NCBI GenBank assembly: GCA_028715905.1
Contig: JAQUQV010000003.1
Span: forward strand, 10,066-74,065
Direction: 5' to 3'
Source: Kiritimatiellia bacterium
GTDB lineage: Bacteria > Verrucomicrobiota > Kiritimatiellia > JAAZAB01
Length of the DNA: 64,000 nt
Position numbers and translations under genes: made by a program. Positions within the stretch are counted from its first letter, which is position 1, and each line of letters begins with the position of its first letter. The notes beneath the pieces are model-generated. The model was not told the origin of the DNA. It searched no databases and was given only the letters and a program-made list of their open reading frames with translations. Below, one piece after another: positions 4,829 to 34,670 of the stretch.

Positions 4829-4843
4829 AAGTCAGGAGAAACC

Positions 4844-6304: not shown

Positions 6305-6321
6305 CCTAAAAATCAAATAAG

Positions 6322-6753: not shown

Positions 6754-6778
6754 AGAAATGCAGAATTAAGAATGCAGG

Positions 6779-7312: not shown

Positions 7313-7730
7313 AAAAATTTCAAATTGCAAATTTCAAATTGCAAATTTCAAACGCCCGGCGCGGCAGACCGGCATGACCCTGGTGGAAGCCGTCCTGGCG
7401 CTGGCTATTTTGAGCATCGGCATTTTTATTCTTATTGAAGCCACGGCCCGCTGTCTGGCCGTGGTGCGTCTCTCGCGCAATTATCAGACCGCGCGCGCCG
7501 TGCTTGCCCGCGGCGAGAGCGAGCATCCCCTGCGCGGCACCAATGAATTGCAGAAGAACATCGTGGAAGGCGCGGAATACGACGGCTTTGTCTTTTCGCG
7601 CGAACTGCGTCCCGTGGACGGCGTGGAGAAACTTTTTATGGTTGTCACGAGGGTCGCCCGGCCGGAAGCCGGCCGTGAATCCGGGGAGGAACTGGTCAGT
7701 TATGTCTATTGCCCGAACGAGGAAGAGTGA
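7299..7730 (+). CDS. gspI: minor pseudopilin GspI-like
   Basis: Cleavage motif QTG|MTLVEAVLALAILSIG with Glu at +5. The only in-frame ATG gives a 25 aa leader and overlaps the gspH end by 14 nt. Confidence 0.68.
   Translation: MDRNKKISNCKFQIANFKRPARQTGMTLVEAVLALAILSIGIFILIEATARCLAVVRLSRNYQTARAVLARGESEHPLRGTNELQKNIVEGAEYDGFVFSRELRPVDGVEKLFMVVTRVARPEAGRESGEELVSYVYCPNEEE
7318..7352 (+). repeat. 14 nt tandem repeat (TTTCAAATTGCAAA) x2.5 inside the gspI leader-coding region
   Basis: tttcaaattgcaaa tttcaaattgcaaa tttcaaa; each unit is near-palindromic. Confidence 0.6.
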
Positions 7731-8511: not shown

Positions 8512-8593
8512 CGCCGATGATTTGACCGGGAAAAGCCTTTTTTTCCGCCCGCTTCTCATGGAAGGCGCAGAGAACGCGGAGATATGAAAGCAA

Positions 8594-9739
8594 ATGCGAT
8601 TGAATATTCAGAAAATAAATAAAAAACTGGATTTGTTTTACCTCGGCGGCCTCCGCGCGGTAAAAAAAAACATTGCAAATCCGGAATCAAAAAAGAGCGG
8701 GTCGGTGCTCATCATCGTGCTCTGGGTGATAGGGTTGCTTTCCATGTTTGTCGCGGCGTTTGCCTTTGATATGCACATTGAGGCGAGGATTGTGTCCGCC
8801 TGGCGCAAGAAATTGAAGGCCGAATACCTGTCAAGGGCCGGCATTGAGCTGGCGCGCATGGCCCTTCTGGAAACCGCGGACCCCGAGGTAACCAATCCGG
8901 AAATATCCGGTTATATTTCCGAGGGGGTGGATTCCGACCGCCGCGCCGCCACCGTTTCCCTCGCGCACGGCGGCGGCGCGGAATTATCGCGGCGGCTGGG
9001 CGAAGGCGCCGTCACGGTCCGCATCCGCCCCGAAAACGCCCGCATCAACCTGAACAGCATTGTCAACGCGAACAACCGCGACGAAACTTTCGTCCTCTGG
9101 GAGCCCATTTTTGAAACCGCCGGCGTGCCCTTTGAAGAGCGCGACGCCCTCATTGACTGCCTCATGGATTGGGTTGATGCGGACGAGTTGACGCACCTGA
9201 ACGGAGCGGAATCCGAGTATTATGAAACATTGACTCCGCCCTATAAGTCCAAAAACGCCCCCATCGACACGGTGGATGAACTCGCGCTCGTCAAGGGTTT
9301 CAACGACAAGCCGATTGCCCAGACGACCCAGACGGTTTACGCGGCCGTGGCCCGGTTCCTGACGACTTACGCCGAGGACCGGACGATCAACATCAATGCC
9401 GTTGACCACGACACGTTGATGGCGTATCTCGGCGTTGATTCGCCCATGGCCGAGGAAATTATTTTCCAGCGGAGCGGGCTGGACGGCGAATACGGCACGG
9501 AAGACGACACCCCGTTCAAGGATTTAGGCGACCTCCTGGCGCGCGTGCCGGGCCTTGATCAATCTATCGCGCCCTATGTTTCCTTCACCTCCAGGGGGCG
9601 TTTTTACATCCAGTCCTCCGGCAAGGTCGGCGACGTGGAGCGGGTGTGCGCCTGTGTCGTCCTGCTGGCGGAAAACAATCTTACCATTTTGAGCTGGATT
9701 GAGGGCGACTCCGCCTCGGCCGACCTGATAACGCGTTGA
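8594..9739 (+). CDS. gspK: minor pseudopilin GspK-like
   Basis: GspK-type N-terminus SGSVLIIVLWVIGLLSMF, which lacks the Glu at +5; about 340 aa periplasmic domain. The true start is uncertain because repeat D copy 2 lies inside the annotated 5' end. Confidence 0.72.
   Translation: MRLNIQKINKKLDLFYLGGLRAVKKNIANPESKKSGSVLIIVLWVIGLLSMFVAAFAFDMHIEARIVSAWRKKLKAEYLSRAGIELARMALLETADPEVTNPEISGYISEGVDSDRRAATVSLAHGGGAELSRRLGEGAVTVRIRPENARINLNSIVNANNRDETFVLWEPIFETAGVPFEERDALIDCLMDWVDADELTHLNGAESEYYETLTPPYKSKNAPIDTVDELALVKGFNDKPIAQTTQTVYAAVARFLTTYAEDRTININAVDHDTLMAYLGVDSPMAEEIIFQRSGLDGEYGTEDDTPFKDLGDLLARVPGLDQSIAPYVSFTSRGRFYIQSSGKVGDVERVCACVVLLAENNLTILSWIEGDSASADLITR
8632..8668 (+). repeat. repeat family D, copy 2
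   Basis: TTTGTTTTACCTCGGCGGCCTCCGCGCGGTAAAA, read as matching 6264-6304 with one short indel. Confidence 0.45.
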
Positions 9740-9755
9740 CAAATCGGAACGCACA

Positions 9756-11327
9756 ATGCAGAATGCGAAACGCGGCATGAATAACAGGAAAGACATGATA
9801 AAAGCGCTCCGGCAAAACTGGCGCCGCCTGCGGAAAAAAATGCCGGCCTTTCGCGCGCTTTTCCGGAGAAATGCCTCCGCCGGCCGCAACCCCGTAACCG
9901 GCTTGAGGATCGCGGACGATTTGCCCTCCGCCGGCGAAGGGTTGACCGGCTTTATTGAATGGACAACGTTGCGCGAGACAAAATCCGGCGTTGAAATACT
10001 GGCGGTGAACAACGTTTCTCTGCCCGGCGATTCCGCCGGTCAGTCCGAGGGGGAGGGGCGCGGCGGGCGGCTCAAAATGCACTGCGCCGAAATAAACGGC
10101 GCGGTATCGCTGGGCATTACGCCCGACAAAATGCTGATGCGCGTGGCGGAATTGCCGACGACCGATCCGGCGGAAATGAACAGCATGATCCGGCTCCAGG
10201 TGGATGCTTCCTCTCCGTTTCCGGACGACCGGATCGTGGTTTCGCATGAAATATTGCGCAGGGACGAGTCCGGGACGCGCGTCCTGATTGTGGCGGCGAC
10301 CAAGGATTTGATTGAAAAAACAGGTTTGCTTTTTAAAAACGCCGGGCTTGATGTGCAGAGGATTGACGCCCAGGTTATGGCCTGGTGGCATCTGATTTCG
10401 GAGCATGTGCGCACATACGGCGGCGGGCGCTGCCTGTTTCTGGTTCTGGAGCCGTGGGGCGGTGTATGGATCGCCGCGCAGGGCGGCGCCCCGCTGGCTT
10501 TCCGCGCGGTGAGCCCCGCCGGCGATATGCCGTTTGCCGAATTTGCCCGCGAGGTGGCGCGGGACGGAGGGGCGCTCGTTCTCTCGCTTGATTCGGAATA
10601 CGGCGGCGCGCCGCTTGTCGGATTGGAGGCGTGGGGGCGGGGACTGGAGACCGGCGTTTTGTCCTCGGCCCTCAGCGAAGAACTGGCGCACGAAGCCAAA
10701 GTCAATTCCCTGGACTCTTTGCCGCCGCTCAGCGAGGGATTGGCGCGGCGGTTTCTGGGGACAAACCTGTCGCCGGTCTTGACCCGCGCCGGGGACGGCG
10801 GACAGCCGGTTATTGATTTAGTTCCGGAAACATGGCGTTCCGCCGTGATTGCGCAGCGGATGCGGCGGAGACTGCTCGTCTCAACGGTGGGCGTTCTGGC
10901 GGTCTGGCTGGCGGCGTTCGCCGGTTTTTTCGGCGCCTATCAATACCAGCATTACCGCCTGGCGAAACTTGAGGAAAAACAGAACGCCTTGCATCAACCC
11001 GCTGAAGAAGTGCGCATGATGCAGAACCAGACCAGGGCCTTTGAGCGGTACCTTGACCGGAAAAATTCCGCGCTGGAATGCCTCCGGGAAATCAGCCAGC
11101 ACCTGCCGAACGGCGTTTTGCTGACTTCTTTTCAATTCAAGAAAGGGAAAACCGTCGCTATCCGCGGCGAGGCGATTGCCGTGGACGCCATTTATGATTA
11201 CAAGCAGGCGCTGGATAAATCCCCGATGTTCGCCCGGATTGAAATGGGCAGCATCCAGCCCGGCAAGCGCAAAAACACCAGCGTGAACACATTTCAAATG
11301 ACGCTTCACTTGAAGGAGCAACCGTGA
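9756..11327 (+). CDS. gspL: GspL-like assembly protein (PilM-like actin-fold cytoplasmic domain fused to a PilN-like TM and periplasmic domain)
   Basis: N-terminal part resembles PilM/GspL cyto domain. C-terminal third has one TM (LLVSTVGVLAVWLAAFAGFF) plus a PilN-like coiled-coil/ferredoxin-like region. Lies between gspK and gspM. Confidence 0.65.
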   Translation: MQNAKRGMNNRKDMIKALRQNWRRLRKKMPAFRALFRRNASAGRNPVTGLRIADDLPSAGEGLTGFIEWTTLRETKSGVEILAVNNVSLPGDSAGQSEGEGRGGRLKMHCAEINGAVSLGITPDKMLMRVAELPTTDPAEMNSMIRLQVDASSPFPDDRIVVSHEILRRDESGTRVLIVAATKDLIEKTGLLFKNAGLDVQRIDAQVMAWWHLISEHVRTYGGGRCLFLVLEPWGGVWIAAQGGAPLAFRAVSPAGDMPFAEFAREVARDGGALVLSLDSEYGGAPLVGLEAWGRGLETGVLSSALSEELAHEAKVNSLDSLPPLSEGLARRFLGTNLSPVLTRAGDGGQPVIDLVPETWRSAVIAQRMRRRLLVSTVGVLAVWLAAFAGFFGAYQYQHYRLAKLEEKQNALHQPAEEVRMMQNQTRAFERYLDRKNSALECLREISQHLPNGVLLTSFQFKKGKTVAIRGEAIAVDAIYDYKQALDKSPMFARIEMGSIQPGKRKNTSVNTFQMTLHLKEQP

Positions 11328-11899
11328 AAATAACATCAAGGGAAATGCTGCTCGGCTGGTTGGCCGGTTTCGTGATGCTCACGGCCGTCTCGCTCTGGAT
11401 CTGCGGGCCGAAGGTGAAAATCTGGAGGGAATTGAACGGCCGTTCCGGAACGGTCGCGCGCCGGATTGAGGTGGCGGAACATCTTGTGGCGCAGAAGGCG
11501 GAGTGGAACAAGCGCTTGCGGGATGTGGCGCAGAAGCTGACCAAATACCCGCCGGATCAGGATGTTACCGCCGATTATCTGAAAATCCTTGAAAATATTG
11601 TCAAGGAAAACAACGTCACTCTTTCACAGCGCGTGCCTCAGAAGGAAAAAAGACACGACATCCTTTACAGTTTGACGATTAATTGCACCTGGGAGGCGGA
11701 ACTGGGCGATCTGGTGCGTTTTCTGTACGCGCTTGGACAGCAGAAAACCACCATGGATGTTGACGATCTGAACATATCGCTCGTGGGCGGCGGCAAGAAC
11801 AGATTGAAGGGTAATTTTGCCTTTGTCGGCCTTTACACCAGAACGGGCGCGCCATCCGCGCAGCAGAAAAAGGAAGAGATTCCGCGGAAAAACAATTAG
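11324..11899 (+). CDS. gspM: GspM/PilO-like assembly protein
   Basis: GTG start with GAAGGAG Shine-Dalgarno, overlapping the gspL stop. Single N-terminal TM, coiled coil, then PilO-like fold (about 190 aa). Confidence 0.62.
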   Translation: MKITSREMLLGWLAGFVMLTAVSLWICGPKVKIWRELNGRSGTVARRIEVAEHLVAQKAEWNKRLRDVAQKLTKYPPDQDVTADYLKILENIVKENNVTLSQRVPQKEKRHDILYSLTINCTWEAELGDLVRFLYALGQQKTTMDVDDLNISLVGGGKNRLKGNFAFVGLYTRTGAPSAQQKKEEIPRKNN

Positions 11900-11909
11900 A
11901 CTGTTCCAG

Positions 11910-11944
11910 TTAAACATGATACACTTTTGCGTAGAAGTTTAAAA
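11910..11944 (+). repeat. repeat family A, partial copy (first 35 nt only): TTAAACATGATACACTTTTGCGTAGAAGTTTAAAA
   Basis: Identical to the 5' part of the gene-facing orientation of the family A copies at 15215-15309, 22368-22460 and 34571-34670. Ends 14 nt before the gspD ATG. Confidence 0.55.
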
Positions 11945-11958
11945 GAGTAAAACAAGAG

Positions 11959-14574
11959 ATGGGCGGAATGATTTGTAACCCTGAAATTTGGCGCGCAATC
12001 AATTGCCTTCTTAAGCTTTTAAAGCGGGCTGAAGACCGCAATCCAAAGGGCCGGGCCGCCCAAACCGCGTGGCCGCGGCGGAAAAACCTGTTCCGTCCCG
12101 GCCGAAGCCTGCCTGCGGCCGCCCGGCTGTTTGCCGTTTTGATGTTGATTTTGGCCGTTCTGCCATTGATTTGCCGCGCTCAAATTGTTGCCGAGGAGGA
12201 GGAGGAGGAGGAGGAGGTGGCGACGGCGGTGCCGGGAAAAGCCGGCGTGGCAGTCCCCGCCCCGGAGTTGCCGCCGATTATGCCCCGTACGCCGGACACG
12301 GTTCAGACCGACCTGCCGGTCGGCTTGAAATATGAAAACATTGATTCGGACGAGGTCATCAAGCAATACAGCGACTGGACCGGCCTGGCCCTGATGAAAT
12401 CCCCCGATGTTCCCACCGTAAAGATTACGCTCAAATGTCCGAAACGCCTGCCGAAACGCGAGGCCCTGCTGGCCATTGAAGGAGTGCTGGCCATGAACGG
12501 CATTGCCCTGGTGCCGATGGGCGACAAGTTTTTAAAAGTCGTCAAGATTGAGACGGCCCGCCAGCATGGCATGAAAACAGGCACCGGGCCGCTTGAAAAG
12601 GATATTGCCACGGCCGACCATCTCGTGAGCCGGATTGTGGAATTAAAGCACCTTGACATTGCCGAGGCGCAGAACGCCATTCAGTCTTTCCTCCATCCCT
12701 ACGCCAAAGTCATTCCGATGGAAAGGGTCAATTGCATCCTGATCACCGAGACCGCCAACAATCTCAAGCGCATCTTGGAAATATTTGAAATCATAGACCA
12801 GCCGATTGAAAGCCGCGAGGACATGCGCATTTTCCAGATAAAATACGCGAAAGCTTCGGAGATCCAGAGCAAAATAGAGTCAATTATCGCCGATGTTCAG
12901 ACGAAGGACACCAAAAGCGCCCTCATCACCCGGCAATTGGCCACCGCGCGCATGCCCTTCCAGCCGGTGCGAGCCGGCCCCCCGGCGCAGCCCGCCCAGG
13001 CCGCCATGGATTCCGAAACTACCGGAACCGCCTTTGACCGCAGTTTGATCCAGAGCAAGGTGAAAATGGTGGCGGACGACCGCATAAATTCGCTCATTGT
13101 CATCACCCGCGTGGAACAGTTCCGCTTCATAGAAAATATCATTAAAGCCCTGGACCAGAAGATTGAACCGGATGTTACCATCAAGGTTCTTACGCTTGAG
13201 TATGCGGATGCCAAGGAGGTCGTTTCGCTCCTGAACACGTTTATTACGGCCGCATCCTCCAGCTCAAAGTCGGCGCAGACCCCGCCCTTGCTGCCGGTTC
13301 CGGAGCGGCCCGCAGAACAGCCGAAACAGGAAGGGCGGAAAGAAGGCGAAACAACCGATGCCGGTGAAAATCAGATCAGCGGAAAACTTTCTTCCGATGT
13401 GAAAATTATTGCCGACAGCCGGATCAACGCCCTGCTCATCATGGCCTGCAAGGCGGACCTGGAAATCATTGAGGAGGTCGTCGCCAAGGTTGACATCATG
13501 CTTTCCCAGGTGCTGATTGAAGTGGTGATTATTGAGGTGTCCCTGACCGACAAGTTTAAAATGGGAATTGACTGGCTGCAGCGTTCAATGATCGCCTACA
13601 ATGAAAAGCAGGGCGGCGGCCGGCGCGCATTCCTCGGTTTTTCCGGCGCCGGACGCGTCGGCGCGGACGGCGCCATCAAAGACGGCGCGGGCATCAATAC
13701 AATCGCCGACAACACCACCAGCGCCGGCTCCGGGCTGACGTATTATTTCACTTTCTTTGACTATAATATTGACGCGGTCCTCAACATGCTGGCCACGACC
13801 GATGACGCCAAAATCCTTGCCACGCCGGTCATTTTAACCACGGACAATACCGAGGCTAAAATCCTGGTCGGCGAGAAAAGGCCGGTGGTGACCGGCACCA
13901 GCATTTCCAGCGCCACCCAGCAATCCACCTACCAGTACGTTGATATCGGTATTGACCTGGAGGTTACCCCCCATATCAACAAGAACGGTTTTGTGATTAT
14001 GGACGTGAAGCAGAAAGTTGACAACACGCCCGGCAACGTAACGATTGACGGCAATCCGGTCCCGATCATCACCACCCGCGATTTTACCGCTTCCATTTCG
14101 GTCAATGACGGCCGGACGGTTATCATCGGCGGAATCGTGAATGAGCAAAACACCAAAGCCAGGACAAAAATCCCCTTCCTGGGCGATATCCCCCTGCTGG
14201 GGCTGCTTTTCCGCAGCGACAGTGACGAATTGAAGCGCACCGAGCTTATGGTGATGCTTACGCCGTACGTGCTTGACACGCCCGCCGAGGCTTACGCGGA
14301 GACGGCCCGGCGGCACGCCAACCTGAAAGGCATTTCCAACCTCTGGGTCCAGGGCTGGTCGCCCAGCGATTTGGCTGCCCCGTCGCAAGAGAAAGTCCGG
14401 GGGCAGGAGCAGGAGGAGAGAAAAAGGACAGAACCCGGCGAGCCGGTGGAAGTTTATCCGCTCGGAGAAAACGCCGTGAATGCCATTCTCCCCGGGAAGT
14501 CTGCGCCGCATCCGGAAAATCAACCGGCGGCGGATTATCAAATGCCCGCTTCCAACTCGCCCGCCGTAAAATAA
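11959..14574 (+). CDS. gspD: type II secretion secretin GspD
   Basis: Several N-domains, secretin domain (..GIVNEQNTKARTKIPFLGDIPLLGLLFRSDSDELKRTELMVMLTPYVL), signal peptide. The start could be a few codons downstream. Confidence 0.9.
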   Translation: MGGMICNPEIWRAINCLLKLLKRAEDRNPKGRAAQTAWPRRKNLFRPGRSLPAAARLFAVLMLILAVLPLICRAQIVAEEEEEEEEVATAVPGKAGVAVPAPELPPIMPRTPDTVQTDLPVGLKYENIDSDEVIKQYSDWTGLALMKSPDVPTVKITLKCPKRLPKREALLAIEGVLAMNGIALVPMGDKFLKVVKIETARQHGMKTGTGPLEKDIATADHLVSRIVELKHLDIAEAQNAIQSFLHPYAKVIPMERVNCILITETANNLKRILEIFEIIDQPIESREDMRIFQIKYAKASEIQSKIESIIADVQTKDTKSALITRQLATARMPFQPVRAGPPAQPAQAAMDSETTGTAFDRSLIQSKVKMVADDRINSLIVITRVEQFRFIENIIKALDQKIEPDVTIKVLTLEYADAKEVVSLLNTFITAASSSSKSAQTPPLLPVPERPAEQPKQEGRKEGETTDAGENQISGKLSSDVKIIADSRINALLIMACKADLEIIEEVVAKVDIMLSQVLIEVVIIEVSLTDKFKMGIDWLQRSMIAYNEKQGGGRRAFLGFSGAGRVGADGAIKDGAGINTIADNTTSAGSGLTYYFTFFDYNIDAVLNMLATTDDAKILATPVILTTDNTEAKILVGEKRPVVTGTSISSATQQSTYQYVDIGIDLEVTPHINKNGFVIMDVKQKVDNTPGNVTIDGNPVPIITTRDFTASISVNDGRTVIIGGIVNEQNTKARTKIPFLGDIPLLGLLFRSDSDELKRTELMVMLTPYVLDTPAEAYAETARRHANLKGISNLWVQGWSPSDLAAPSQEKVRGQEQEERKRTEPGEPVEVYPLGENAVNAILPGKSAPHPENQPAADYQMPASNSPAVK
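12194..12217 (+). repeat. (GAG)8 trinucleotide repeat encoding a poly-Glu tract just after the secretin signal peptide
   Basis: gaggaggaggaggaggaggaggag in frame gives EEEEEEEE. Confidence 0.7.
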
Positions 14575-15206: not shown

Positions 15207-15214
15207 GTTTCCCG

Positions 15215-15309
15215 CCTAAGGCGGCAGTGCCGCCATCCAAAACTTTCCCGGCTGGCGATCCGCCGGTTTTATTTAAACTTCTACGCAAAAGTGTATCATG
15301 TTTAAATGG
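15215..15309 (-). repeat. repeat family A, copy 1 (about 95 nt), facing the BFN gene start
   Basis: About 90% identical to 22368-22460 and to the reverse complement of 34571-34670. Contains hairpin GGCGGCAGTGCCGCC. Ends 9 nt before the BFN ATG. Confidence 0.6.
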
Positions 15310-15320
15310 AACGGTCTAAA

Positions 15321-22283: not shown

Positions 22284-22367
22284 AATTAAATGAAAACGCG
22301 CAATTATTTGATTTAAGCGTACCTGAAGAACGGCCGTCAGGCAAGTAGAAATCAATGCGATTCCCGT

Positions 22368-22460
22368 CTAAGGGGCAGTGCCGCCATCCAAAACTTTCCC
22401 GGCTGGCGATCCGCCGGTCTTATTTAAACTTCTACGCAAAAGTGTATCATGTTTAAATGG
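22368..22460 (-). repeat. repeat family A, copy 2, facing the DUF362 gene
   Basis: Near-identical to 15215-15309. Lies about 85 nt upstream of the DUF362 ATG. Confidence 0.6.
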
Positions 22461-22496
22461 CGCTAAAATCGGGCGGCGGGGGGCGGGGGAGACCGG

Positions 22497-23645
22497 CTAC
22501 GGCAAAAAGGCGCCTTTTTTGATTTTTACAGGCAAATATTTTTCCAGCACGTAATTGAGGCCGTGTTTGGCAAAGGCCTGCTGCTCAATGCGCACGCCCA
22601 TGGAAAGCATCTGCTCCAGCGCGGCCTGCCATTCCTTGTGGTGTTTAATGAAGGGATCGTTTTTCAGCGCGTCCCTGGCGCGTTTAATGTCGTTTTCCTC
22701 CAGCGGGTGGGTGGCGTCCTTGAGGTCAAAGTCAATGATGTCCTGCGGGGTGACGCCGAGATAGTGGACCTGCGGCACGCAGAAGAACTGGTTGATGTGC
22801 GCGGCCTGGCCCGAGCCGACCTTGAGCGTCCGGTAGATGTTGCAGTAGCCGTACGGGTCGCCGTCGGTGAATGCCAGCACCGGCAGGCGGCGGTCGTCGC
22901 AGAGGCGGCGGATGAACCGGCGGCAGGCGCGGGTCGGAACTCCGCTCATTGAAATCAGGATGCAGTTCGCCTTTTCATAGTAGCGGTGGTGCACCAGACG
23001 TTGAAAGAGCGAGGCAGTCTCAATTACCAGCACGAATTTCGCCTTTGTCTCAAAACGCAGGTGCTCAACCTGGGAGGGAATGCTCCATGCGCCGGTGCCG
23101 AGCCGTTCGCAGTTGATCCTGATTTCGTCCCGCGTGCCGGGATCAACATCAATGACCGTGAGCGGACCGGTAACTTCGCCGCCGCGCTCCTCGGGAATAT
23201 AACCGAGTTGTTCGCGGTTGACGGCGAGCATGGCTTCCATGTCGTCCAACAGCGAGTCGCTTTCCGGCTGTTCGTTGAACCGGCATTCGCCCCAGCTTTT
23301 GCTGTTGTAATAAATTTCGCGCTTCCCGGCGATGTCGTTCTTGTCCAGCAGGTCGTTCTTGGTGGTGGCCAGCAGGCGCATGGACTGGGCGAAAGTTTTG
23401 ACCGTGTTGTAGGAGAGCGTGCGCGTCGCCGTTTTGTTGAGGATTTCAAAATGGCCCTTGCGCGGGTCGTACTTGACGTTGCTCAGGGAGCGGATCGGGA
23501 AACGCATTTTTGGGCGGGTGTTTTTTTTGACAATATCCGCGTAAATATCGCCGGCCGTCCGCGTGATTTTAGCGGCGGCGTCTTTTTTGGAGACGATATT
23601 GTATTTTGCTGTGTTTAATTTTACGGTGTCTGACGTCTTTGCCAT
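22497..23645 (-). CDS. top6A: DNA topoisomerase VI subunit A (Spo11/Top6A family)
   Basis: CAP domain with catalytic-Tyr motif GKREIYY, Toprim Glu (VLVIETASLF) and DxD (FTDGDPYGY). GAGGAAAAAC ATG Shine-Dalgarno. Confidence 0.85.
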   Translation of the reverse strand: MAKTSDTVKLNTAKYNIVSKKDAAAKITRTAGDIYADIVKKNTRPKMRFPIRSLSNVKYDPRKGHFEILNKTATRTLSYNTVKTFAQSMRLLATTKNDLLDKNDIAGKREIYYNSKSWGECRFNEQPESDSLLDDMEAMLAVNREQLGYIPEERGGEVTGPLTVIDVDPGTRDEIRINCERLGTGAWSIPSQVEHLRFETKAKFVLVIETASLFQRLVHHRYYEKANCILISMSGVPTRACRRFIRRLCDDRRLPVLAFTDGDPYGYCNIYRTLKVGSGQAAHINQFFCVPQVHYLGVTPQDIIDFDLKDATHPLEENDIKRARDALKNDPFIKHHKEWQAALEQMLSMGVRIEQQAFAKHGLNYVLEKYLPVKIKKGAFLP

Positions 23646-23759
23646 GTTTTTCCTCAAGTGCTGAATCTTTCTGATTTTCGGATATTTCTCGCCTGCTCTC
23701 CCGGCCTCCCGGAGAATCGGGAAGCGCAAGGCGTTCGCTTTTCTGTGAGGGTCATTCTG

Positions 23760-25505
23760 CTATTGTTCCAGATGCGTCCTTTCCAGCATCTTTTGCAGTT
23801 TGTGCAACACGGCTTTTTCCTGCCGGTCGTCAAATTCCAGGATTTGTTTCAGACCCAGCGCCAGATGGGGCAGGTAGAGCTCAATGTAATTCCGCTTGCG
23901 CTCCAGTTCCGCCTGGCGCCGCCGCCGGCTCAAATAGACCGCCAGCCGCCGGCCGCATTCCTGAAGGGCAAAAACTATTTCGCGGATGATTTCCGGGTAA
24001 TGCGCGATGGCCTCCTTGCTTTCGCTGGTGAAGGGCACCCAAACGCTGGCGATATGGACCATGATCACCAGCGGTCCCAGCGGCAGAGAGCCGGAAGGCT
24101 GGGCGAGGTGATAGCTTTTCCAATTGATGGCGGAGACCGCCTTGGTGATGGCGCAGGCGCCGCCCATGTAAAGCATCGGAACCTTGTTGGCGAAACGCAG
24201 GACGCGGGCCGGCTCTTCCGCGCCGAGTCCCTGGGCGGCGTCCGGCTTGGCGTAGGCGATTCCCGCCTCAATCTGGAAGGGATTGCCGCGGTAGACCTCC
24301 GGACTGCGCGTGACGGACGTGTAGAAATCGGCCTTGATTTCCTTCTCCAGCCCGGCGATTATTTCCTTTTCGCCGATCGGCGAGAGGCAGTCGGTCGGCG
24401 GCCGCATCAACTTGGTTTCGCCGATGGCCTTGAAGAGCGCCTCGCTTTCGCGGTGCGCGATCTGGGCCGGCCGCTCCTTAGGGGCTAATCCGGCCCGCTC
24501 GCAGATTTCCTTCGCCACGCGGTCGCTGATCCGCGAGAAATCGTGCTGCAGGGCGGCCTTGAGGGATTTATGGGGGGTGTCTTTCAGCATCTGGATAAGC
24601 ATGCCCAGCTCAACGCCGTGGGGATGCGGCTTGATTTCAAAGGGCTGGACCGGGGTTTTGTGCGTGGCCCGCGCAAAGGTGGTCCACGGCGCCGTCCCTT
24701 TTTCCCCGGGAACGTCCTTTTCCTTTCCCGGCTCAGCCGCGCTGATGCGGTAATGCAGTTGAAGGTGGGGGTTGACGATGGCGCATTGTTTCAGGTATTC
24801 ATCCACGGAAAGTTTGCCGCGCGCGTAGGCCGCCTCCATTTCAATGGCCACGCAGGTGCCGTGCCTGGCGGTTGCCGCCCCGCCCGTTTCGCCGCCGGCG
24901 AATTCCGGCGTCCATTCCAGTTCCTGGTCCTTGAGGATGACCGGCTTGTTCTGGCGCGTGTCAATCTGCACTTCAAGGTGGTGGCCGGTTTTTGAATTTT
25001 TTGTCCGGGACTTTATGACGGTCGGCTTGCCGGTGGTCAACTGCCCGTACATTCCGGCGGCGCTGATGCCGATGCCCTGCTGGCCGCGCGACATGCGCAG
25101 GCGGTGGAACTTTGAGCCGTAAAGCAGCTTGGCGAATATTTTCGGGATCTGGTTGCGCAGGATGCCCGGTCCATTGTCGGTAACCGATACCACGAAACGT
25201 TTGGCGGCGGTCTGCCGGATTTCAACGCCGATTTCCGGCAGGATGCCGGCTTCGTCGCAGGCGTCCAGGGAATTGTCAACCGCTTCCTTGACGGCGGTCA
25301 GGAGCGCCTTGCGCGGGTTGTCAAAACCCAGCAGGTGGCGGTTTTTGAGAAAAAATTCGGAGACCGATATTTCCCGCTGGCTGGCGGCCATGCTTTCGGC
25401 GGTGGCGCCGGAGTCCGCCGGCGGCCGGGCACGGCCGGATTGGCGGCCGGCATTGTTTTTTACGTTTTTGCCGGGCGCGGTTTGCCTGAAAGTTTTTTTC
25501 CTCAT
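23760..25505 (-). CDS. top6B: DNA topoisomerase VI subunit B (GHKL ATPase plus transducer)
   Basis: Bergerat-fold motifs (EAVDNSLDA.., DNGPGI, GxxGxG-like QGIGISAAGMYG). N-terminus ..EISVSEFF.. is typical of Top6B. The start may instead be the Met at 25391. Confidence 0.85.
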   Translation of the reverse strand: MRKKTFRQTAPGKNVKNNAGRQSGRARPPADSGATAESMAASQREISVSEFFLKNRHLLGFDNPRKALLTAVKEAVDNSLDACDEAGILPEIGVEIRQTAAKRFVVSVTDNGPGILRNQIPKIFAKLLYGSKFHRLRMSRGQQGIGISAAGMYGQLTTGKPTVIKSRTKNSKTGHHLEVQIDTRQNKPVILKDQELEWTPEFAGGETGGAATARHGTCVAIEMEAAYARGKLSVDEYLKQCAIVNPHLQLHYRISAAEPGKEKDVPGEKGTAPWTTFARATHKTPVQPFEIKPHPHGVELGMLIQMLKDTPHKSLKAALQHDFSRISDRVAKEICERAGLAPKERPAQIAHRESEALFKAIGETKLMRPPTDCLSPIGEKEIIAGLEKEIKADFYTSVTRSPEVYRGNPFQIEAGIAYAKPDAAQGLGAEEPARVLRFANKVPMLYMGGACAITKAVSAINWKSYHLAQPSGSLPLGPLVIMVHIASVWVPFTSESKEAIAHYPEIIREIVFALQECGRRLAVYLSRRRRQAELERKRNYIELYLPHLALGLKQILEFDDRQEKAVLHKLQKMLERTHLEQ

Positions 25506-25592
25506 AAGCGGAAGGAAACGATAAGGAAAATACGCAAAAAAACAATTAAAAATTGACAATAAAACGCGAATATATAACAATAATTTTTTACC

Positions 25593-25650
25593 AGCGGGCA
25601 ATGCCCGCTTGAGTGAAAGCGAATATTGCACGATTCTCTTGCAATATTCA
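25593..25650 (-). repeat. repeat family C, copy 2 (reverse orientation on the plus strand; faces top6B)
   Basis: GCGGGCAATGCCCGC..linker..GAATATTGCACGATTCTCTTGCAATATTC; the linker is the reverse complement of the copy 1 linker. Confidence 0.5.
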
Positions 25651-25659
25651 GGCATTAAC

Positions 25660-25881
25660 ATGTTTATTTCCGGATTAACTTCGGTAACATTCCGCAAACT
25701 TTCCTGCCGGAAAGTGGCCGCCCTGGTGAAAAAAGCCGGTTTGGCCGCCATTGAGTGGGGCGGGGAAGTGCACGTGCCGCACGGCGATATTGCCCGCGGG
25801 AAGTGTTTTTTATTGCCTTTCGGGTCTTGTTTGGCGATATTACTTCCCTGTGTTGCCTCAAGGCCGCCCGGAAAGGGATAG
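25660..25881 (+). pseudogene. probable N-terminal remnant (about 48 aa) of a xylose-isomerase-like TIM-barrel (sugar phosphate isomerase/epimerase) gene
   Basis: MFISGLTSVTFRKLSCRKVAALVKKAGLAAIEWGGEVHVP resembles the N-terminus of that family (compare the intact paralog at 29071-29868). Similarity stops after about 50 aa, and the ORF ends 3 nt before lpxA. Confidence 0.3.
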
Positions 25882-25884
25882 TGT

Positions 25885-26685
25885 ATGACCCAAATTCATC
25901 AGACCGCCGTAGTGCATAAAAACTCCGAAATAGGCGAAAACGTTGTCATCGGCCCTTACGCGGTCATTGACGAGCAGACGCAGATTGCCGACGGGGTTAA
26001 AATCGGCCCGCACGTTGTTGTTCATAAACATGTTTCGCTTGGCGGAAACTGCGTCGTGCATGCCCATGCGGTTCTCGGCGACCTGCCCCAGGATCTTGTT
26101 TATCAAGACGTTGTGAGTTATGTCCGGGTCGGAGCGGGAACAACCATTCGCGAAGGCGTTACCATCCACCGCGGCACAAAGGCCGAAACGACCACCGCGG
26201 TCGGAGAAAATTGTTACCTGATGGCCAACTCGCATCTGGCGCACAATGTGCGGCTTGGCGATAACGTCGTTTTGGCAAACGGAGCCCTTCTGGCCGGTTA
26301 TGTTGAAGTCGGCGAACGCGCATTCATCAGCGGGAACTGCGTCATTCATCAGTTCGTGCGGATTGGCCGTCTGGCCATGCTGGGGGGCAACAGCGGCCTC
26401 AGCCAGGACGTGCCGCCGTTCTGCACCGCGGCCAGCGTGCATTTGAACGCGCTGGCCGGGATCAACGTGGTCGGTCTGCGCCGGGCCGGCATTTCCGCCC
26501 CCGACCGCCTGATTATCAAGCGCGTTTTTGCGGTTCTTTTCCGCTCGGGCCTTAATGTTTCCCAGGCGGTTGAGAAAATCCGGCGGGAGGAACAATCTCC
26601 GTACGCGCGCGAAATATGCGATTTTATCGCCGCCTCCAAAAGGGGCGTATGCGCCGCCAGGATTTCCGGCGAAAACGGCGAATAG
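25885..26685 (+). CDS. lpxA: acyl-ACP--UDP-N-acetylglucosamine O-acyltransferase
   Basis: Left-handed beta-helix hexapeptide repeats plus the LpxA C-terminal helical domain; 266 aa. Confidence 0.9.
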   Translation: MTQIHQTAVVHKNSEIGENVVIGPYAVIDEQTQIADGVKIGPHVVVHKHVSLGGNCVVHAHAVLGDLPQDLVYQDVVSYVRVGAGTTIREGVTIHRGTKAETTTAVGENCYLMANSHLAHNVRLGDNVVLANGALLAGYVEVGERAFISGNCVIHQFVRIGRLAMLGGNSGLSQDVPPFCTAASVHLNALAGINVVGLRRAGISAPDRLIIKRVFAVLFRSGLNVSQAVEKIRREEQSPYAREICDFIAASKRGVCAARISGENGE

Positions 26686-29868: not shown

Positions 29869-30158
29869 GTTTTTGCTCCTTCCCGTGATGTTATTCTTGA
29901 GCGGCCTTGATTTCTGCATGGCAACGTGCGCAATCCGCGCTATGTGAAAAATTATTAAAGAAGCCCGGGAAAAAGGCAATTGACAAAAAGTATTATTTGT
30001 TGACGAGAAGCATGATCATGATTTGTTCCGGCCCCATCCCGGTTTCGGCGTAAAAATATGGTTGATATCGGCGAAAGATAATGTAAATTCAGGCACAACC
30101 GCATCGGCGGGCGGAATATAATGAAAGAACAGCGCTTTTTTTAAGGAGGAGGGCGGAT

Positions 30159-32258
30159 ATGGAATCAAGAGAAGACGGCAATGTGCTGAAACCGGCGGTT
30201 GCGCGGGTTATGCGGTTGAGCATTGGTTTTTTGGCATTGATTTCCTGTTTTATTTTGGCGGAGTCTTGCGCCGATGGCGCCCCTATATGTAATCTGGATA
30301 ACGCCGATAAATTCAAGATTCCGGAGCGCTGGGCGGCGCGTCCGGTTGGAGCGCGCGATTTTTACATTGAGAGTCCGTTGGAAATCCAGAATCAAGAGGT
30401 CCGGGTCGGGAATGAAACGCGGCTTTTCGGGGAAGTGCCCTGCTGGAAACAGGGGGTTTTACGCGTGTCCTATGGCGCGATGAGAGACCCGGACGGCACG
30501 TATTATAAAGAAGTATTGAGCCAAAGGGATAATCCGATCATCATATACGGACGTCCGAAGACCATGGATACCAATGCGCTGATGCGGATCAAGCGGGATT
30601 TCGGGAAACGATTTCTCGGGGTTTACGCGCTTGAGTGGTATAGTCATCCGTTCCTTGGCAACAGGGGGGTGGAAGGGGTGAAAACGGTATGCGAAGAATA
30701 CAAGATTCCACTGGTGCGGAACCGGGACGAGGCCTTTCATCTCTTTGAATTGCATTTTAAAAACACGTGGGGCGGACTGCAGGCGGCCGGCATTCCCGTC
30801 TATGCCGGCCAGGCCACGTTTATGAATCACTGGGAATGCCGGATGGGTGTGAGCATAACCGGGGAGGAAATCGGCGGCAACGAGCGTTGCACGCCTATGC
30901 AGCTGGCGTTTTCGCGCGGCGCCAGCCGGCAATATGACGTGCCCTGGGTGGTGTATATTGCGAGTTGGGGCGGGGGAGTGGTGGGCGATGCGGAGACCCG
31001 TTATTTATTTGTGCGGCCGGATGAACGGCGGCTGAACTCCACCAGATCCGGAGGCACCTATGACGTCGGTCCTTACAGCGGCACTTCCTGGTCGTTGATG
31101 AAGCGCATGTTATACGCATCGTACATGGCGGGAACAGGTGTCGCGAGAAAAGAAGGCGATAAGAATGCTTTTTTCGCGAACTTTGACGCGGATACCGTGG
31201 ATTCAATTCCGCCCTGCACACTCGCGCTGCAGGATCGGAAGACATATCTCTCGCCGCTGGGCCGGATATATGAAAGGTTTTATGACACGGTGACTGCCGG
31301 GCATGAGCGGGGGATTCCATACGCGCCGATCGCCCTGGTGTTTGACAAGAACCACGGCTGTATCCTGGAATATAGCCAGATCCATACCATATCTTGCGTC
31401 CCGTACGGGCCTGGCGAATGGCAGACGCGGGCGATAATCAACACTGTGTTTCCGTGGGAAGAAAGGCGCAAGGAGACCAAGTCGTTTGAATCCAATACGC
31501 TGGTGACCGGTCCTTTCGGGGATATATTTGACGTGTTGACCAGCGACGCCGGGGGCGAGGTGTTAAGCAGTTACCGGTGTCTTGCTTTGGTTGGGAATGT
31601 GCGGATGAATGAGGGGCTGGAAGACCGGATAAAAGAGCATGTCAAGGGCGGCGGAGTGGTCTTTATGGCAGTCGCGCAGATGACGCCGGCATTATGGGAG
31701 GCGGCCGGGCTGGAAGACGGCCGGGCGGACCTGCAGGCAAAGGTTTGGCGGGTGGAGGGGGAAGACAAGCGGGTGGAGGAAGACCAAAGCTGCACCTATC
31801 GGAAAGCAGGGTTAAAAGGCGCGGAGGCGCTGATCAGGACCGAAAACGGCGACCCGCTGGTGACCATTAAACGGGAAGGCAAAGGGGCGATCGTGGTTGG
31901 CCTTGCGGGCTGGATGACGATTGACGGGCCGAAGCCGAACCGGATGTTGAAAGTTTATTCGGAAGTGATGGGGAGGATAGCGGATGAATTGTCGCCCGTG
32001 AAAGTGAGCGGGAATGTGGAAAAACTTTATAACCGGAACGGCAAGGGATGGGTGGTAACCTTGATCAATAATGACGGCATTTATAAATATCCGGGCAAGA
32101 AGGAAGTGTTAAAGCCGGAAGAAGCGGTTGAGGTCAGTCTGGAACCGCGGTTTGCCCATGGCGCCGTCCGCGAATGGGTCACGGGGGCGGAGATGAAGGA
32201 ATTGAAATTGACGGTCCCGCCGGGGGACGTGCGGATTGTTGAAATTGAGGAAAAATGA
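30159..32258 (+). CDS. hypothetical secreted protein (699 aa), possibly a glycan-active enzyme of unassigned family
   Basis: AAGGAGG Shine-Dalgarno 9 nt upstream, N-terminal signal-anchor MRLSIGFLALISCFILAES. No family recognised. Confidence 0.55.
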   Translation: MESREDGNVLKPAVARVMRLSIGFLALISCFILAESCADGAPICNLDNADKFKIPERWAARPVGARDFYIESPLEIQNQEVRVGNETRLFGEVPCWKQGVLRVSYGAMRDPDGTYYKEVLSQRDNPIIIYGRPKTMDTNALMRIKRDFGKRFLGVYALEWYSHPFLGNRGVEGVKTVCEEYKIPLVRNRDEAFHLFELHFKNTWGGLQAAGIPVYAGQATFMNHWECRMGVSITGEEIGGNERCTPMQLAFSRGASRQYDVPWVVYIASWGGGVVGDAETRYLFVRPDERRLNSTRSGGTYDVGPYSGTSWSLMKRMLYASYMAGTGVARKEGDKNAFFANFDADTVDSIPPCTLALQDRKTYLSPLGRIYERFYDTVTAGHERGIPYAPIALVFDKNHGCILEYSQIHTISCVPYGPGEWQTRAIINTVFPWEERRKETKSFESNTLVTGPFGDIFDVLTSDAGGEVLSSYRCLALVGNVRMNEGLEDRIKEHVKGGGVVFMAVAQMTPALWEAAGLEDGRADLQAKVWRVEGEDKRVEEDQSCTYRKAGLKGAEALIRTENGDPLVTIKREGKGAIVVGLAGWMTIDGPKPNRMLKVYSEVMGRIADELSPVKVSGNVEKLYNRNGKGWVVTLINNDGIYKYPGKKEVLKPEEAVEVSLEPRFAHGAVREWVTGAEMKELKLTVPPGDVRIVEIEEK

Positions 32259-32282
32259 GCCGGGAGGGGGAATATTTAACCG

Positions 32283-33398
32283 ATGAAAAAAATAATATTG
32301 CTGGCGATAGGCATAGCGGCCGGGGCCGCGGCGGGAAGCGCGGAGCAAGCGGCCGGGAAGGTTATTCTGGACGAAATGTTTGACCGTCCGGAAATCGGCG
32401 CGAACTGGGTGGTAAAGGAAGGATATTGGACGATCAAAAACGGCAGTTTATGCAACACGGACGGCGGGGTGATCCTGGCGGCCAAACCGATGGAAGGCGA
32501 TTTTGCGCTGGAATGCGAGGTTCGGGTGGCAAAATGGAACGCGCAATATCCATGGGTTGATATTATCGTCGGTTATGATGATCCGGAGAATTACATGTCT
32601 TTAATGTTCACGCCCGGAGAACGTTATTATTATTTGAGGGCGACGGCTGATGCCGCGAATCAGATGTCAGGCGGCAATATTCCATTTGATCAAGACGTGT
32701 TTCACAAGGTCAGGCTGGAAAGCCGCGGGCTGATGGTAAAGTTTTTTTGGGACGGCGTCTATATTCGGCAGCACCGGTTCAGCCAGATTCTGCCGGCCAT
32801 GGTTGGCTTTATGGGGAACAAGTCCGGCGCGGAATATGAAATCAGGGCGGTAAGGATAAGCGAGATTCAGGAGAGCGGGCGGCAGGTCGGTGAGTTGACG
32901 GTCAATGAAATCATGCGCGCGCAAGCATGGGAAGATGCCGGGAATAACAACGTGAAACGGGGCCGGGGCTGCGAAGAGAAGGATAATGCGGCCTGGCTGG
33001 AATATGATTTCAAGGAAACCGGCGAATACGCGGGGGTCTTCGTGCGGATGCCGGCGCGTATCGGCAATTCCGAAAAGGTTTTAATGGAAATAGCCGGGGA
33101 CGGGTCCGCGAACAAAGCGTATCTGATCGCGCGGGACGCCGGAGATGAGGAACACTTAATCGGCACGGTCAGTCTGAACTGGGACGGGTGGCGTAAAATA
33201 TCGTTGAATTACGAAATATTTTTGAAGCCTCCGGGGCGGGAGATATATGCGACCCATTGGGGCGGAGACGGGAACCAGACGATTGATTTTCCGATCAAGC
33301 AGATTGAAGTGGGCGTGGTCCGGTCCGATAAAGCCGTGAAACGCGCGGGTAGAATCGGCGTGCGCAACATCCGGTTTATGAAGGATGAAGGGGGATAG
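32283..33398 (+). CDS. secreted DUF1080 (3-keto-disaccharide-hydrolase-like jelly-roll) protein with a C-terminal CBM-like domain
   Basis: Signal peptide; DUF1080 signature region (VILDEMFDRPEIGANWVVKEGYWTIKNGSL). C-terminal roughly 110 aa are homologous to the C-terminus of the next protein. Confidence 0.72.
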   Translation: MKKIILLAIGIAAGAAAGSAEQAAGKVILDEMFDRPEIGANWVVKEGYWTIKNGSLCNTDGGVILAAKPMEGDFALECEVRVAKWNAQYPWVDIIVGYDDPENYMSLMFTPGERYYYLRATADAANQMSGGNIPFDQDVFHKVRLESRGLMVKFFWDGVYIRQHRFSQILPAMVGFMGNKSGAEYEIRAVRISEIQESGRQVGELTVNEIMRAQAWEDAGNNNVKRGRGCEEKDNAAWLEYDFKETGEYAGVFVRMPARIGNSEKVLMEIAGDGSANKAYLIARDAGDEEHLIGTVSLNWDGWRKISLNYEIFLKPPGREIYATHWGGDGNQTIDFPIKQIEVGVVRSDKAVKRAGRIGVRNIRFMKDEGG

Positions 33399-33405
33399 TT
33401 ATCAT

Positions 33406-34575
33406 ATGACATTGACGCGCATGTTCTTGTTGATCGCGCCGGCGGCAGGCTTGATGCTGGTTGGATGTCATTTGATTGACGCTGCCGGCCGGAAAACCGG
33501 AGGCGAAAATCAAAAAACTGACGGCGCGCCGCCGAATTTCCTGCGGAACGGGAATTTTGAAAAAACAGACCGGCTCACCGGAAAGCCGGCGGACTGGTCT
33601 TGTCACGAGAAAATGGCTGGGAGCAATGTTATTGAGTGGGGGGTTACCCCGGAAAATGGCCGCGCGGGGCGGAATTGCCTGCGTTTAAGCTCGGAGAGGG
33701 AGGGATATCACGGCGGTATTTTTCAAAAAGTGGCGCTGGAACCCGATATGACTTATAAATTCAGCGCGTGGATCAAGGCGGACGTCGCGACCAATGACGG
33801 CAAGGTGGTATGCTTGTATTATGATGGCTATAATGAAGAGGATGGCAAAAAACAATGGTGGGGCGGGTCGTTAAAAACTCTGCGGCAGAGCGCGGACTGG
33901 CAATACGTGGAAAAGGTGATTGTTGCGACATCGCGCACGCCGGAAACGGTGAATTTTTATCCGTGCTTGTTTTACGGCGCGACGCGCGTATGGCTGGATG
34001 ATGTGCGGCTGGTTGAGGAGGGGTATGCCGGCCAGCCGGGGAGGAGCGTATTTCAGATCAAGGCGCCCGCGGCGGACTGGGAGATTTTTTGCGACCAGGG
34101 GGAAAGGTATGGGGTTAAAACGCGGGCGGCGCGGGTGAAACGGGAACAGGTGGAAGGCCGGGATTGCCTGCGGCTTGATTATCGCTTTGAGACGGCCGGA
34201 CATGATTGCGTGATGATACGCGCGGCGGCGAATGCCGGCGAAAAGGCCGGCCTGGCGGCCGTAACAATGTACGGGGACGGATCAGGGCATGAATTGTTTC
34301 TTATCCTGGAGGATAACGGCGGAGAGAATCATTATTTGCCGATTACCCCGGTTTATTGGAAAGGCTGGCGGACGGTTTATCGTGCCATGGATAAACTGTA
34401 TCGGCCGCCCAGGAAGCATGAAATACATGCGACGTGTTGGGGCGGGGACAGCAACCAGGTTGTTGATTTGCCGCTCAAGCGGATTACGGTCGGAATGAAC
34501 GACTGGCCCGATGAATACCGCGGGCGTGGGCGGGTCTGGCTGGAAAAGGCGGTTTTTTTAGACCGTTCCTTTTAA
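33406..34575 (+). CDS. lipoprotein with CBM4/9-like domain (NGNFE..) and the same C-terminal domain as the preceding protein
   Basis: Lipobox LMLVGC, NGNFEKTD CBM_4_9-like start. The C-terminus ..IHATCWGGDSNQVVDLPLKRITVG.. is paralogous to ..IYATHWGGDGNQTIDFPIKQIEVG.. Confidence 0.65.
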   Translation: MTLTRMFLLIAPAAGLMLVGCHLIDAAGRKTGGENQKTDGAPPNFLRNGNFEKTDRLTGKPADWSCHEKMAGSNVIEWGVTPENGRAGRNCLRLSSEREGYHGGIFQKVALEPDMTYKFSAWIKADVATNDGKVVCLYYDGYNEEDGKKQWWGGSLKTLRQSADWQYVEKVIVATSRTPETVNFYPCLFYGATRVWLDDVRLVEEGYAGQPGRSVFQIKAPAADWEIFCDQGERYGVKTRAARVKREQVEGRDCLRLDYRFETAGHDCVMIRAAANAGEKAGLAAVTMYGDGSGHELFLILEDNGGENHYLPITPVYWKGWRTVYRAMDKLYRPPRKHEIHATCWGGDSNQVVDLPLKRITVGMNDWPDEYRGRGRVWLEKAVFLDRSF

Positions 34576-34670
34576 ACATGATACACCTTTGCGTAGAATT
34601 TTAAATAAGGCCGGCGAATCGCCACCCGGGAAAGTTTTTAATGGCGGCGCTGCCGCCTTGGATTGGAATG
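34571..34670 (+). repeat. repeat family A, copy 3, facing the downstream plus-strand gene
   Basis: TTTAAACATGATACACCTTTGCGTAGAATTTTAAATAAGGCCGGCGAATCGCC...GGCGGCGCTGCCGCC. Ends about 20 nt before AGGAGG ... ATG at 34691. Confidence 0.6.

Follow-up and report, generated by a model that had tools for sequence, protein, structure and literature searches.

The window analyzed here, a stretch of 64,000 nucleotides from an uncultured Kiritimatiellia bacterium of the Planctomycetota-Verrucomicrobiota-Chlamydiota (PVC) group (assembly GCA_028715905.1, contig JAQUQV010000003.1), carries on its minus strand two adjacent chromosomal genes, top6B and top6A, which very probably encode a genuine type IIB topoisomerase, DNA topoisomerase VI (topo VI). 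Top6B (23760..25505; 581 aa) consists of a GHKL ATPase, a helix-two-turns-helix (H2TH) and a transducer domain, and Top6A (22497..23645; 382 aa) of a winged-helix/5Y-CAP, an all-beta and a Toprim domain. Both open reading frames (ORFs) are intact in the ORF listing.

Neither the pair nor the enzyme is new: GenBank has annotations of both genes, and topo VI has been recorded in scattered bacteria before. Bacterial topo VI had been reported by 2009 at the latest, from three genomes at that time (PMC2647321), and a 2024 survey lists it in 17 bacterial families, including Pirellulales and Sedimentisphaerales of the Planctomycetota within the PVC group (Allen and Maxwell, 2024; PMC11302465). These papers agree with an earlier, sequence-only reading of this DNA, which described topo VI as sporadic in bacteria. 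The modestly new aspect is the lineage. Kiritimatiellia, Verrucomicrobiota and Lentisphaerota are neither among the 17 families nor in the supplementary table of the survey (PMC11302465), and the literature library that was searched has no paper linking any of them with topo VI. The census of bacterial topo VI understates its distribution, since an abundant PVC lineage with topo VI is absent from it.

The two proteins are 100% identical to the GenBank entries MDD5482314.1 (subunit B) and MDD5482313.1 (subunit A), which are encoded on one contig of 117,690 bp in a Kiritimatiellae metagenome-assembled genome (MAG). The exact Top6A was also found on a single Logan contig of 2.6 kb, and the exact Top6B has no entry in the gene-position index. 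The former is named “DNA topoisomerase VI subunit B”, while the Prokaryotic Genome Annotation Pipeline (PGAP) has named the latter “DNA topoisomerase IV subunit A”, a wrong name that goes back to the descriptions of the NCBIfam models NF003332-NF003337 and that relatives of the protein carry as well. In genome surveys of type II topoisomerases, it can both conceal topo VI and give the false impression that ParC is present.

Family assignment and functional residues

Top6A matched the Pfam domains TP6A_N (PF04406; 46.9 bits, cut-off 26), Topo_VI_alpha (PF20768; 51.8 bits, cut-off 23.6), which is the all-beta domain between the winged helix and Toprim, and TOP6A-Spo11_Toprim (PF21180; 191.6 bits, E = 1.4e-56, profile positions 1-170 of 170). 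Its best match by sequence in the Protein Data Bank (PDB) was Top6A of Methanocaldococcus jannaschii (1d3y), with an E-value of 1e-104 and 55% identity over 298 columns. In the alignment, R109 and Y113 pair with R99 and Y103 of the M. jannaschii protein, and E209, D261 and D263 with its E197, D249 and D251 (numbering with an offset derived from the 1d3y construct). The active-site segment R109-E-I-Y-Y113 is encoded at 23307..23321 on the minus strand, with the codon of the catalytic tyrosine Y113 at 23307-23309, and the metal-binding residues of the Toprim domain lie within 22857..23021 on the same strand (E209, 23019-23021; D261, 22863-22865; D263, 22857-22859); all of these codons were checked. 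The Spo11-type tyrosine in REIYY and the Toprim E..DxD pattern on which the sequence-only reading had based its call are thus present as R109/Y113 and E209/D261/D263.

For Top6B, the Pfam matches were HATPase_c (39.4 bits) and Topo-VIb_trans (PF09239; 194.7 bits, E = 1.1e-57, profile positions 1-159 of 159), and the trusted cut-offs of two NCBIfam models were exceeded (NF003218, 642.2 bits versus 274; TIGR01052, 503.2 versus 380.7). The best PDB match by sequence was Top6B of Methanosarcina mazei (2q2e_B; E = 5e-139), which aligns with query residues 35-570. A Foldseek search with the AlphaFold model of Top6B also gave Top6B structures as the best matches (E = 2e-44 to 1e-27), as compared to E-values of about 1e-9 and 10-14% identity for the ATPase domains of GyrB and ParE. 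The Pfam, NCBIfam and structure matches agree with the full-length Top6B, with GHKL ATPase and transducer, of the earlier reading.

The residues that bind ATP in the Bergerat fold were located by alignment with archaeal Top6B proteins. Motif I, KEAVDN, extends from the general base E74 to the Mg2+ ligand N78 (25272..25286, minus strand; codons checked) and pairs with E38 and N42 in Saccharolobus shibatae and with E44 in M. mazei. The segment D110-N-G-P-G and the glycine-rich lid G141-G146 likewise pair with the motifs of these two species. In the transducer, the “switch” lysine K497 (SESKEAIA; 24015..24017, minus strand; codon checked) pairs with S. shibatae K427, and W462-K463-S464-Y465 (24111..24122, minus strand) with the WKQY of M. 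mazei, a WKxY motif that is essential for strand passage in that species (PMC5922973). The H2TH region is indicated by a continuous alignment of residues ~290-365 with that of M. mazei, by a helical bundle at 297-363 in the AlphaFold model and by a weak Pfam match to NFACT_N, an H2TH-type domain, at 299-361. The AlphaFold model also contains a long C-terminal helix at 503-555. Across 36 aligned clade members the functional residues of the pair do not vary; within WKxY this applies to W462 and Y465. What the sequence shows directly is thus the catalytic residues and the domain architecture of topo VI in both proteins.

Some of the results weigh against this assignment. The KGRR loop, which is essential in M. 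mazei Top6B (PMC5922973), is represented by A-R229-G-K231, with a one-residue deletion and two basic residues as compared to three in M. mazei; this loop is the sole departure that we found from the archaeal functional blueprint. Only moderate quality was reached by the AlphaFold model of Top6B (mean predicted local distance difference test score, pLDDT, 71.7; predicted template modelling score 0.48), and its global TM-scores are low (0.35-0.37), as the domains are poorly placed relative to one another. Top6A matches six narrow NCBIfam sub-models strongly but does not reach the trusted cut-off of any of them (best NF003337, 452.7 bits versus 675). These are lineage models with very high thresholds, and the shortfall reflects a classification threshold rather than a biological feature; GenBank names the protein from this model family nonetheless.

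We considered whether the pair could belong to another Toprim/GHKL system, either the JetD component of Wadjet defence or a type IIB enzyme of mobile elements such as plasmids and viruses (topo VIII, Mini-A). The PADLOC models gave weak matches of the Toprim domain of Top6A to JetD (17-22 bits, E = 2e-5 to 6e-4), and Top6A has a sub-threshold Pfam match to DUF2399. Against these stand the full-length matches of both proteins to topo VI models at 190-640 bits, the absence of any PADLOC match for Top6B, and the encoding of A and B as separate polypeptides, as in topo VI. No JetABC, integrase, transposase or plasmid genes were found nearby, and no mobile-element genes within at least 10 kb of the pair; the neighbors are a DUF362 gene, an Fe-S protein gene and lpxA. 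A scan of viral contigs recovered no relative of the pair, and a tblastn search of 72,556 plasmids recovered Top6A in only three haloarchaeal replicons (33% identity), with no relatives on bacterial plasmids; matches to PHROGs were weak and at the domain level only. The hidden Markov model (HMM) and structure searches effectively refute an origin in another such system, which we regard as very improbable. In the HMM, solved-structure and fold searches alike, the pair falls into Top6A/Top6B rather than a Toprim/GHKL defence or partition family, an alternative that the sequence-only reading had itself raised.

Relatives, gene order and phylogeny

A search of a large protein collection returned at least 8000 candidates per subunit, of which the best 120 were examined. 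These had identities of at least 79% (A) and at least 66% (B), and their source names were those of Kiritimatiellia, Kiritimatiellae, Lentisphaerae and Verrucomicrobia MAGs. Hundreds of relatives in Kiritimatiellia-type MAGs have identities of 80% or more, and the pair recurs there on many long contigs that are independent of each other and reach 1.5 Mb. In addition, related loci (given L-numbers here) were collected from species-representative genomes by a peptide-pattern search for Top6B relatives, which recovered 23 Kiritimatiellia-type loci. Across this clade Top6A is 78-92% identical, while the nearest archaeal loci, of DPANN-type and methanogen-labelled genomes, show 55-63% identity for A and 50-56% for B. 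Of the 23 loci, 20 have the order B-then-A, as do the nearest archaeal loci; no top6A was seen in the remaining three, two of which end soon after top6B. Gene order is not shared beyond the pair, as judged by tblastn of seven window neighbors against 43 loci, with lpxA nearby in L003 only.

The relationships of both subunits, for which the earlier reading had proposed a phylogeny, were examined with neighbor-joining trees. For each subunit the Kiritimatiellia-type sequences form one clade in 100 of 100 bootstraps, and the A and B trees show the same inner groups, with the window pair grouping with L001 and L002. The sample also includes Phycisphaerales and cyanobacterial loci, whose Top6A is only 32-33% identical to that of the window and is not encoded next to top6B; these sequences join the Kiritimatiellia clade in 0 of 100 bootstraps in the A tree and, weakly, in 64 of 100 in the B tree. 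In L034 and L040 (Cyanobacteria and Phycisphaerales MAGs), Top6B is 48-50% identical, and a single Top6A-like gene is seen, at a distance of 5-6 kb and on the other strand; they represent a differently organized bacterial topo VI type.

The trees fit a single ancient transfer to the Kiritimatiellia lineage, after which the pair was inherited vertically, and they provisionally suggest that, for the A subunit at least, this transfer was separate from the Planctomycetota-type acquisition. What counts against placing more weight on them is that they are distance trees of a sample picked by peptide patterns, which makes the deeper statements provisional.

The archaeal affinity raises the question of whether archaeal DNA was mis-assembled or mis-binned into a bacterial MAG, such that a bacterial topo VI would be an artefact. 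The nearest relatives outside the clade are indeed DPANN-type and methanogen sequences, and a Kiritimatiellia-type pair, L019, is found in a bin named Acetobacteraceae. Yet the identity to the archaeal sequences is only 50-63%, the same continuous sequence carries bacterial-only genes on the flanks of the pair, among them lpxA and a type II secretion system secretin gene, and the GC content, the GC content at third codon positions and the codon usage of top6A and top6B are within the range of the host genes. With the pair also present on the many independent contigs described above, we consider an artefact exceedingly improbable. The genomic context, the composition, the scans of viral and plasmid sequences and the PADLOC results together therefore led us to reject defence, mobile-element and contamination origins.

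A further alternative is that the genes are a decaying or inactive relic of the transfer, or that they encode a Spo11/TopoVIB-like DNA-breaking complex that lacks ATP-driven strand passage. This would be in line with the partial conservation of the KGRR loop and with a frame change inside top6B of L032, L036 and L038. In the window, by comparison, both ORFs are intact, and the H2TH region and the residues for ATP binding and cleavage have been kept without change throughout the clade, whereas TopoVIB-like proteins have no H2TH and degenerate GHKL motifs (PMC11302465). The 78-92% identity of Top6A across the clade moreover implies strong purifying selection. Loss of function or of strand passage thus appears highly improbable, and topo VI proper is the reading that we retain.

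Three observations concern the related loci themselves. In L032, L036 and L038, top6B is split into two frames (at 10365, 10610 and 10963, respectively), which represents either assembly errors or pseudogenes. L019 is a 2.2-kb contig with a pair of 63% and 79% identity that is nested in the Kiritimatiellia clade, and most likely results from faulty binning rather than representing a topo VI of Alphaproteobacteria. Finally, five Kiritimatiellia-type loci have a conserved ORF between top6B and top6A (L006, 1898-2438; L010, 1909-2448; L011, 2863-3783; L013, 11665-12254; L043, 6306-6908), an insert that the window lacks. Within the first 120 residues of each frame, this ORF opens with MTENELS..IIGAAIEVH..LGGPGLLE..YEEAL, which may be similar to the “GxxExxY”/PD-(D/E)xK-like small proteins.

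Start codons and the N-terminal tail of Top6B

The top6B frame spans 23760..25751, and translation from ATG 25505 gives a protein of 581 aa that begins with MRKKTF. The top6A frame spans 22497..23729, and ATG 23645 gives 382 aa beginning with MAKTSD. These are also the start codons chosen by PGAP and GenBank. Two longer ORFs were rejected, one of 663 aa for top6B from ATG 25751 and one of 410 aa for top6A from TTG 23729. Their added N-termini are unconserved and run through A+T-rich intergenic DNA, relatives have stops in these stretches, and the GenBank starts are the shorter ones.

The spacer between the two genes measures 114 nt (23646..23759, minus strand) and separates the top6B stop at 23760 from the top6A start at 23645, as the earlier reading of an adjacent minus-strand pair had it. 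A Shine-Dalgarno-like GAGGA is located at 23651-23655, 5 nt 5' of the top6A ATG, and no minus-strand terminator-like site was seen in the spacer, so that co-transcription of top6B and top6A is likely.

Codons 1-38 of top6B (25392..25505, minus strand) encode a basic, low-complexity extension, MRKKTFRQTAPGKNVKNNAGRQSGRARPPADSGATAES, with nine K/R versus two D/E residues. The sequence-only reading had made this extension conditional on use of the upstream Met, and the relatives support that start. An in-frame Met upstream of the conserved segment ATAESMA-x-x-QREISVSEFF is present in 27 of 29 related loci; the exceptions are L034, which is cut at a contig end, and L038, which has no in-frame start. 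An internal start at Met39 was ruled out. The ATAESMA segment is conserved as protein 5' of this Met, and two relatives lack the Met itself (Leu or nothing); the start of Top6B must therefore lie upstream. Upstream of this segment, no candidate start other than ATG 25505 is available before the A+T-rich intergenic DNA begins.

Beyond the conserved ATAESMA segment, the extension has a median length of nine residues in 120 database homologs, and ~8 aa in most of the clade, as compared to 33 aa in the window protein. The nearest relatives (at least 80% identity) have K/R-rich tails of 16-50 residues that are poorly conserved in sequence. The basic tail is thus real, limited to a narrow sub-lineage of the closest relatives and fast-evolving. 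It is probably disordered, as suggested by a pLDDT below 50 at residues 1-40 of the AlphaFold model, and a role in DNA binding may be proposed as speculation. The tail-coding region also contains a GC-rich hairpin, of which there is no second copy in the window.

Genomic neighborhood

The lpxA gene is divergent from the pair and located 380 nt upstream of top6B, and the A+T-rich intergenic region between them (25506..25884) is the presumed promoter region. Downstream of top6A are the DUF362 gene and a gene for a 4Fe-4S protein. Elsewhere in the window are clpB, glnE, comEC, genes for carbohydrate-active enzymes and a type II secretion cluster. The segment is an ordinary bacterial chromosome with no signs of mobile elements. 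No Rfam family reached its gathering score in the window, and a relaxed Rfam search of 22300-25950 gave only DicF at E = 0.36, which is at chance level.

The type II secretion cluster extends over 3089-14574 and comprises GspE, GspF, three pseudopilin genes, a PilN-like gene and the GspD secretin; the pseudopilin genes have a common prepilin N-terminal motif, seen as a repeat at 6387/6856/7370. The GC skew is strong at 30001-34000 (0.22-0.28, versus ~0.05 elsewhere), an interval that spans the plus-strand ORFs 30159-32258, 32283-33398 and 33385-34575. Two of these have no Pfam match, and the third contains a CBM_4_9 carbohydrate-binding domain.

Repeats near the pair

A 29-nt palindrome, GAATATTGCACGA-TTC-TCTTGCAATATTC, is located at 25621-25649, 116-144 nt upstream of the top6B ATG, and has the general form GAATATTGCACGA-N3-TCTTGCAATATTC, alternatively written as ATATTGCA-N9-TGCAATAT. 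It may be an operator-like site. A second copy lies at 4844-4873, between gspE and gspF; by chance ~0.14 copies are expected in total, and no copy was found in the 43 related loci. When 23700-25800 was searched by 13-mers against all of the window, the palindrome (25620-25649) was the only repeat to emerge, and nothing in the 5' coding region of top6B is repeated elsewhere in the window. The palindrome is probably the “repeat C” that the sequence-only reading had placed in the 5' region of Top6B: such an element does precede the gene, upstream of the ATG, and lies outside the interval 22497-25505 of that reading.

The window also contains an interspersed repeat of ~110 nt in four copies, at 11896-11943 (+), 15209-15320 (-), 22374-22460 (-) and 34557-34668 (+). 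They have in common a 32-nt core, AAACATGATACACTTTTGCGTAGAAGTTTAAA, with 0-2 mismatches, of which no copy is expected by chance. Each copy, in the orientation of the core, is directly 5' of an unrelated gene, namely the gspD secretin gene, an ORF with a BFN/UVR nuclease domain, the DUF362 gene and an ORF for a small secreted protein. The copy at 22374-22460, ahead of the DUF362 gene, begins 37 nt past the top6A stop, and its predicted folding does not exceed that of shuffled sequence (z = -0.86). The repeat has no Rfam match and looks like a shared promoter plus leader module.

Proposed function

The assembly, activity and cellular role of the pair are what we infer. The genes would be transcribed as a top6B-top6A message from the A+T-rich region that is shared divergently with lpxA, and their products would assemble into an A2B2 heterotetramer, as expected from their homology to topo VI of M. 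mazei and S. shibatae. Top6B is expected to bind ATP in its Bergerat fold (E74, N78 and D110-N-G-P-G), to dimerize and to capture the transported duplex, with K497 of the transducer sensing the gamma-phosphate of ATP, while the WKxY/stalk surface and the H2TH domain would engage the gate duplex. Top6A would cut the gate duplex via Y113 and the Mg2+-binding Toprim residues E209/D261/D263, let the second duplex through and then reseal the break. The cellular job would be the decatenation of daughter chromosomes and the relaxation of positive supercoils, as for topo IV in most bacteria. The pair itself would descend from one old archaeal-to-bacterial transfer and have been inherited since within the Kiritimatiellia-type clade.

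By analogy with other PVC bacteria, the pair probably substitutes for topo IV in decatenation and in the relaxation of positive supercoils. In the 2024 survey, gyrase was present in all 17 families and topo IV was lacking in those outside Pseudomonadota and Terrabacteria, and none of the five PVC representatives had ParC/ParE (PMC11302465). Unpublished data mentioned there report complementation of an E. coli parE(ts) mutant by topo VI of M. mazei (PMC11302465). A consideration on the other side is that the proposed replacement is drawn from other PVC bacteria. No gene for gyrase or topo IV was found within the window, which bears neither way on the replacement of topo IV.

It could also be that the enzyme is a real topo VI and yet no substitute for topo IV, in that the genome also encodes ParC/ParE and topo VI is specialized or redundant. 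The five PVC representatives that lack ParC/ParE argue against this, and the strong conservation of both subunits, with 78-92% identity for A, fits an essential housekeeping role; we consider a non-substituting topo VI unlikely, if still to be reckoned with. Replacement of topo IV by the pair stays the preferred reading.

A broader scenario combines several of these elements. The whole class Kiritimatiellia would have gained topo VI once, from a DPANN-/Methanococcales-like archaeon and independently of the Planctomycetota; the enzyme would be the sole dedicated decatenase, replacing topo IV; and the variable basic Top6B tail of the sub-lineage would give the ATP gate an additional arm for binding DNA. 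Taken as a whole this combination is possible but rather doubtful. If it were true class-wide, Kiritimatiellia would be the largest bacterial lineage relying on an archaeal-type topoisomerase for chromosome segregation. If these bacteria lack topo IV, they would offer a convenient bacterial setting in which to study how topo VI decatenates DNA and responds to inhibitors that target it, such as radicicol.

Comparison with known systems

We compared the pair to the archaeal topo VI enzymes of M. mazei (2Q2E), S. shibatae (2ZBK) and M. jannaschii (1D3Y). Like these, it consists of two subunits encoded by adjacent genes, with the same domain order, the catalytic residues, the switch lysine and WKxY, and with full-length alignments; unlike these, it is found here in a bacterial host. 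Top6B of the window lacks the C-terminal Ig-like domain of the M. mazei protein, with the alignment ending at M. mazei residue 508 of 621. It further differs from archaeal Top6B by two short insertions in the GHKL region (~200-215 and ~255-272), by the R-G-K loop in place of KGRR and by the basic N-terminal tail of 38 aa.

The resemblance to the bacterial topo VI enzymes of the 2024 survey lies in the archaeal-derived A and B pair, the Gram-negative host and the lack of an Ig-like C-terminal domain, which is also missing from the bacterial Top6B proteins modelled there (PMC11302465). Two bacterial clusters were described in that survey, one near Methanococcales and one near DPANN/Euryarchaeota (PMC11302465), and the A subunit of the window pair is, like one of the two, close to Methanococcales and DPANN sequences.

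With topo VIII and Mini-A the pair shares the cleavage core of Toprim and winged helix, and with topo VIII also the GHKL ATPase. Gadelle et al. reportedly described topo VIII in 2014 as a fusion of B and A on plasmids. Topo VIII is a fused B-A protein on plasmids, and the topo VIII and Mini-A enzymes are fused or truncated single proteins on mobile elements (PMC9665070), as compared to the two full-length chromosomal genes here. The complex of Spo11 with TopoVIB-like proteins, which have no H2TH and degenerate GHKL motifs (PMC11302465), differs from the window pair, in which Top6B has intact GHKL motifs and an H2TH domain. With topo IV (ParC/ParE), the pair would have the job in common, ATP-dependent decatenation and relaxation, as presumed from the survey (PMC11302465), whereas topo IV has an unrelated type IIA architecture, and GyrB and ParE match the Top6B model at the level of the GHKL-transducer fold only.

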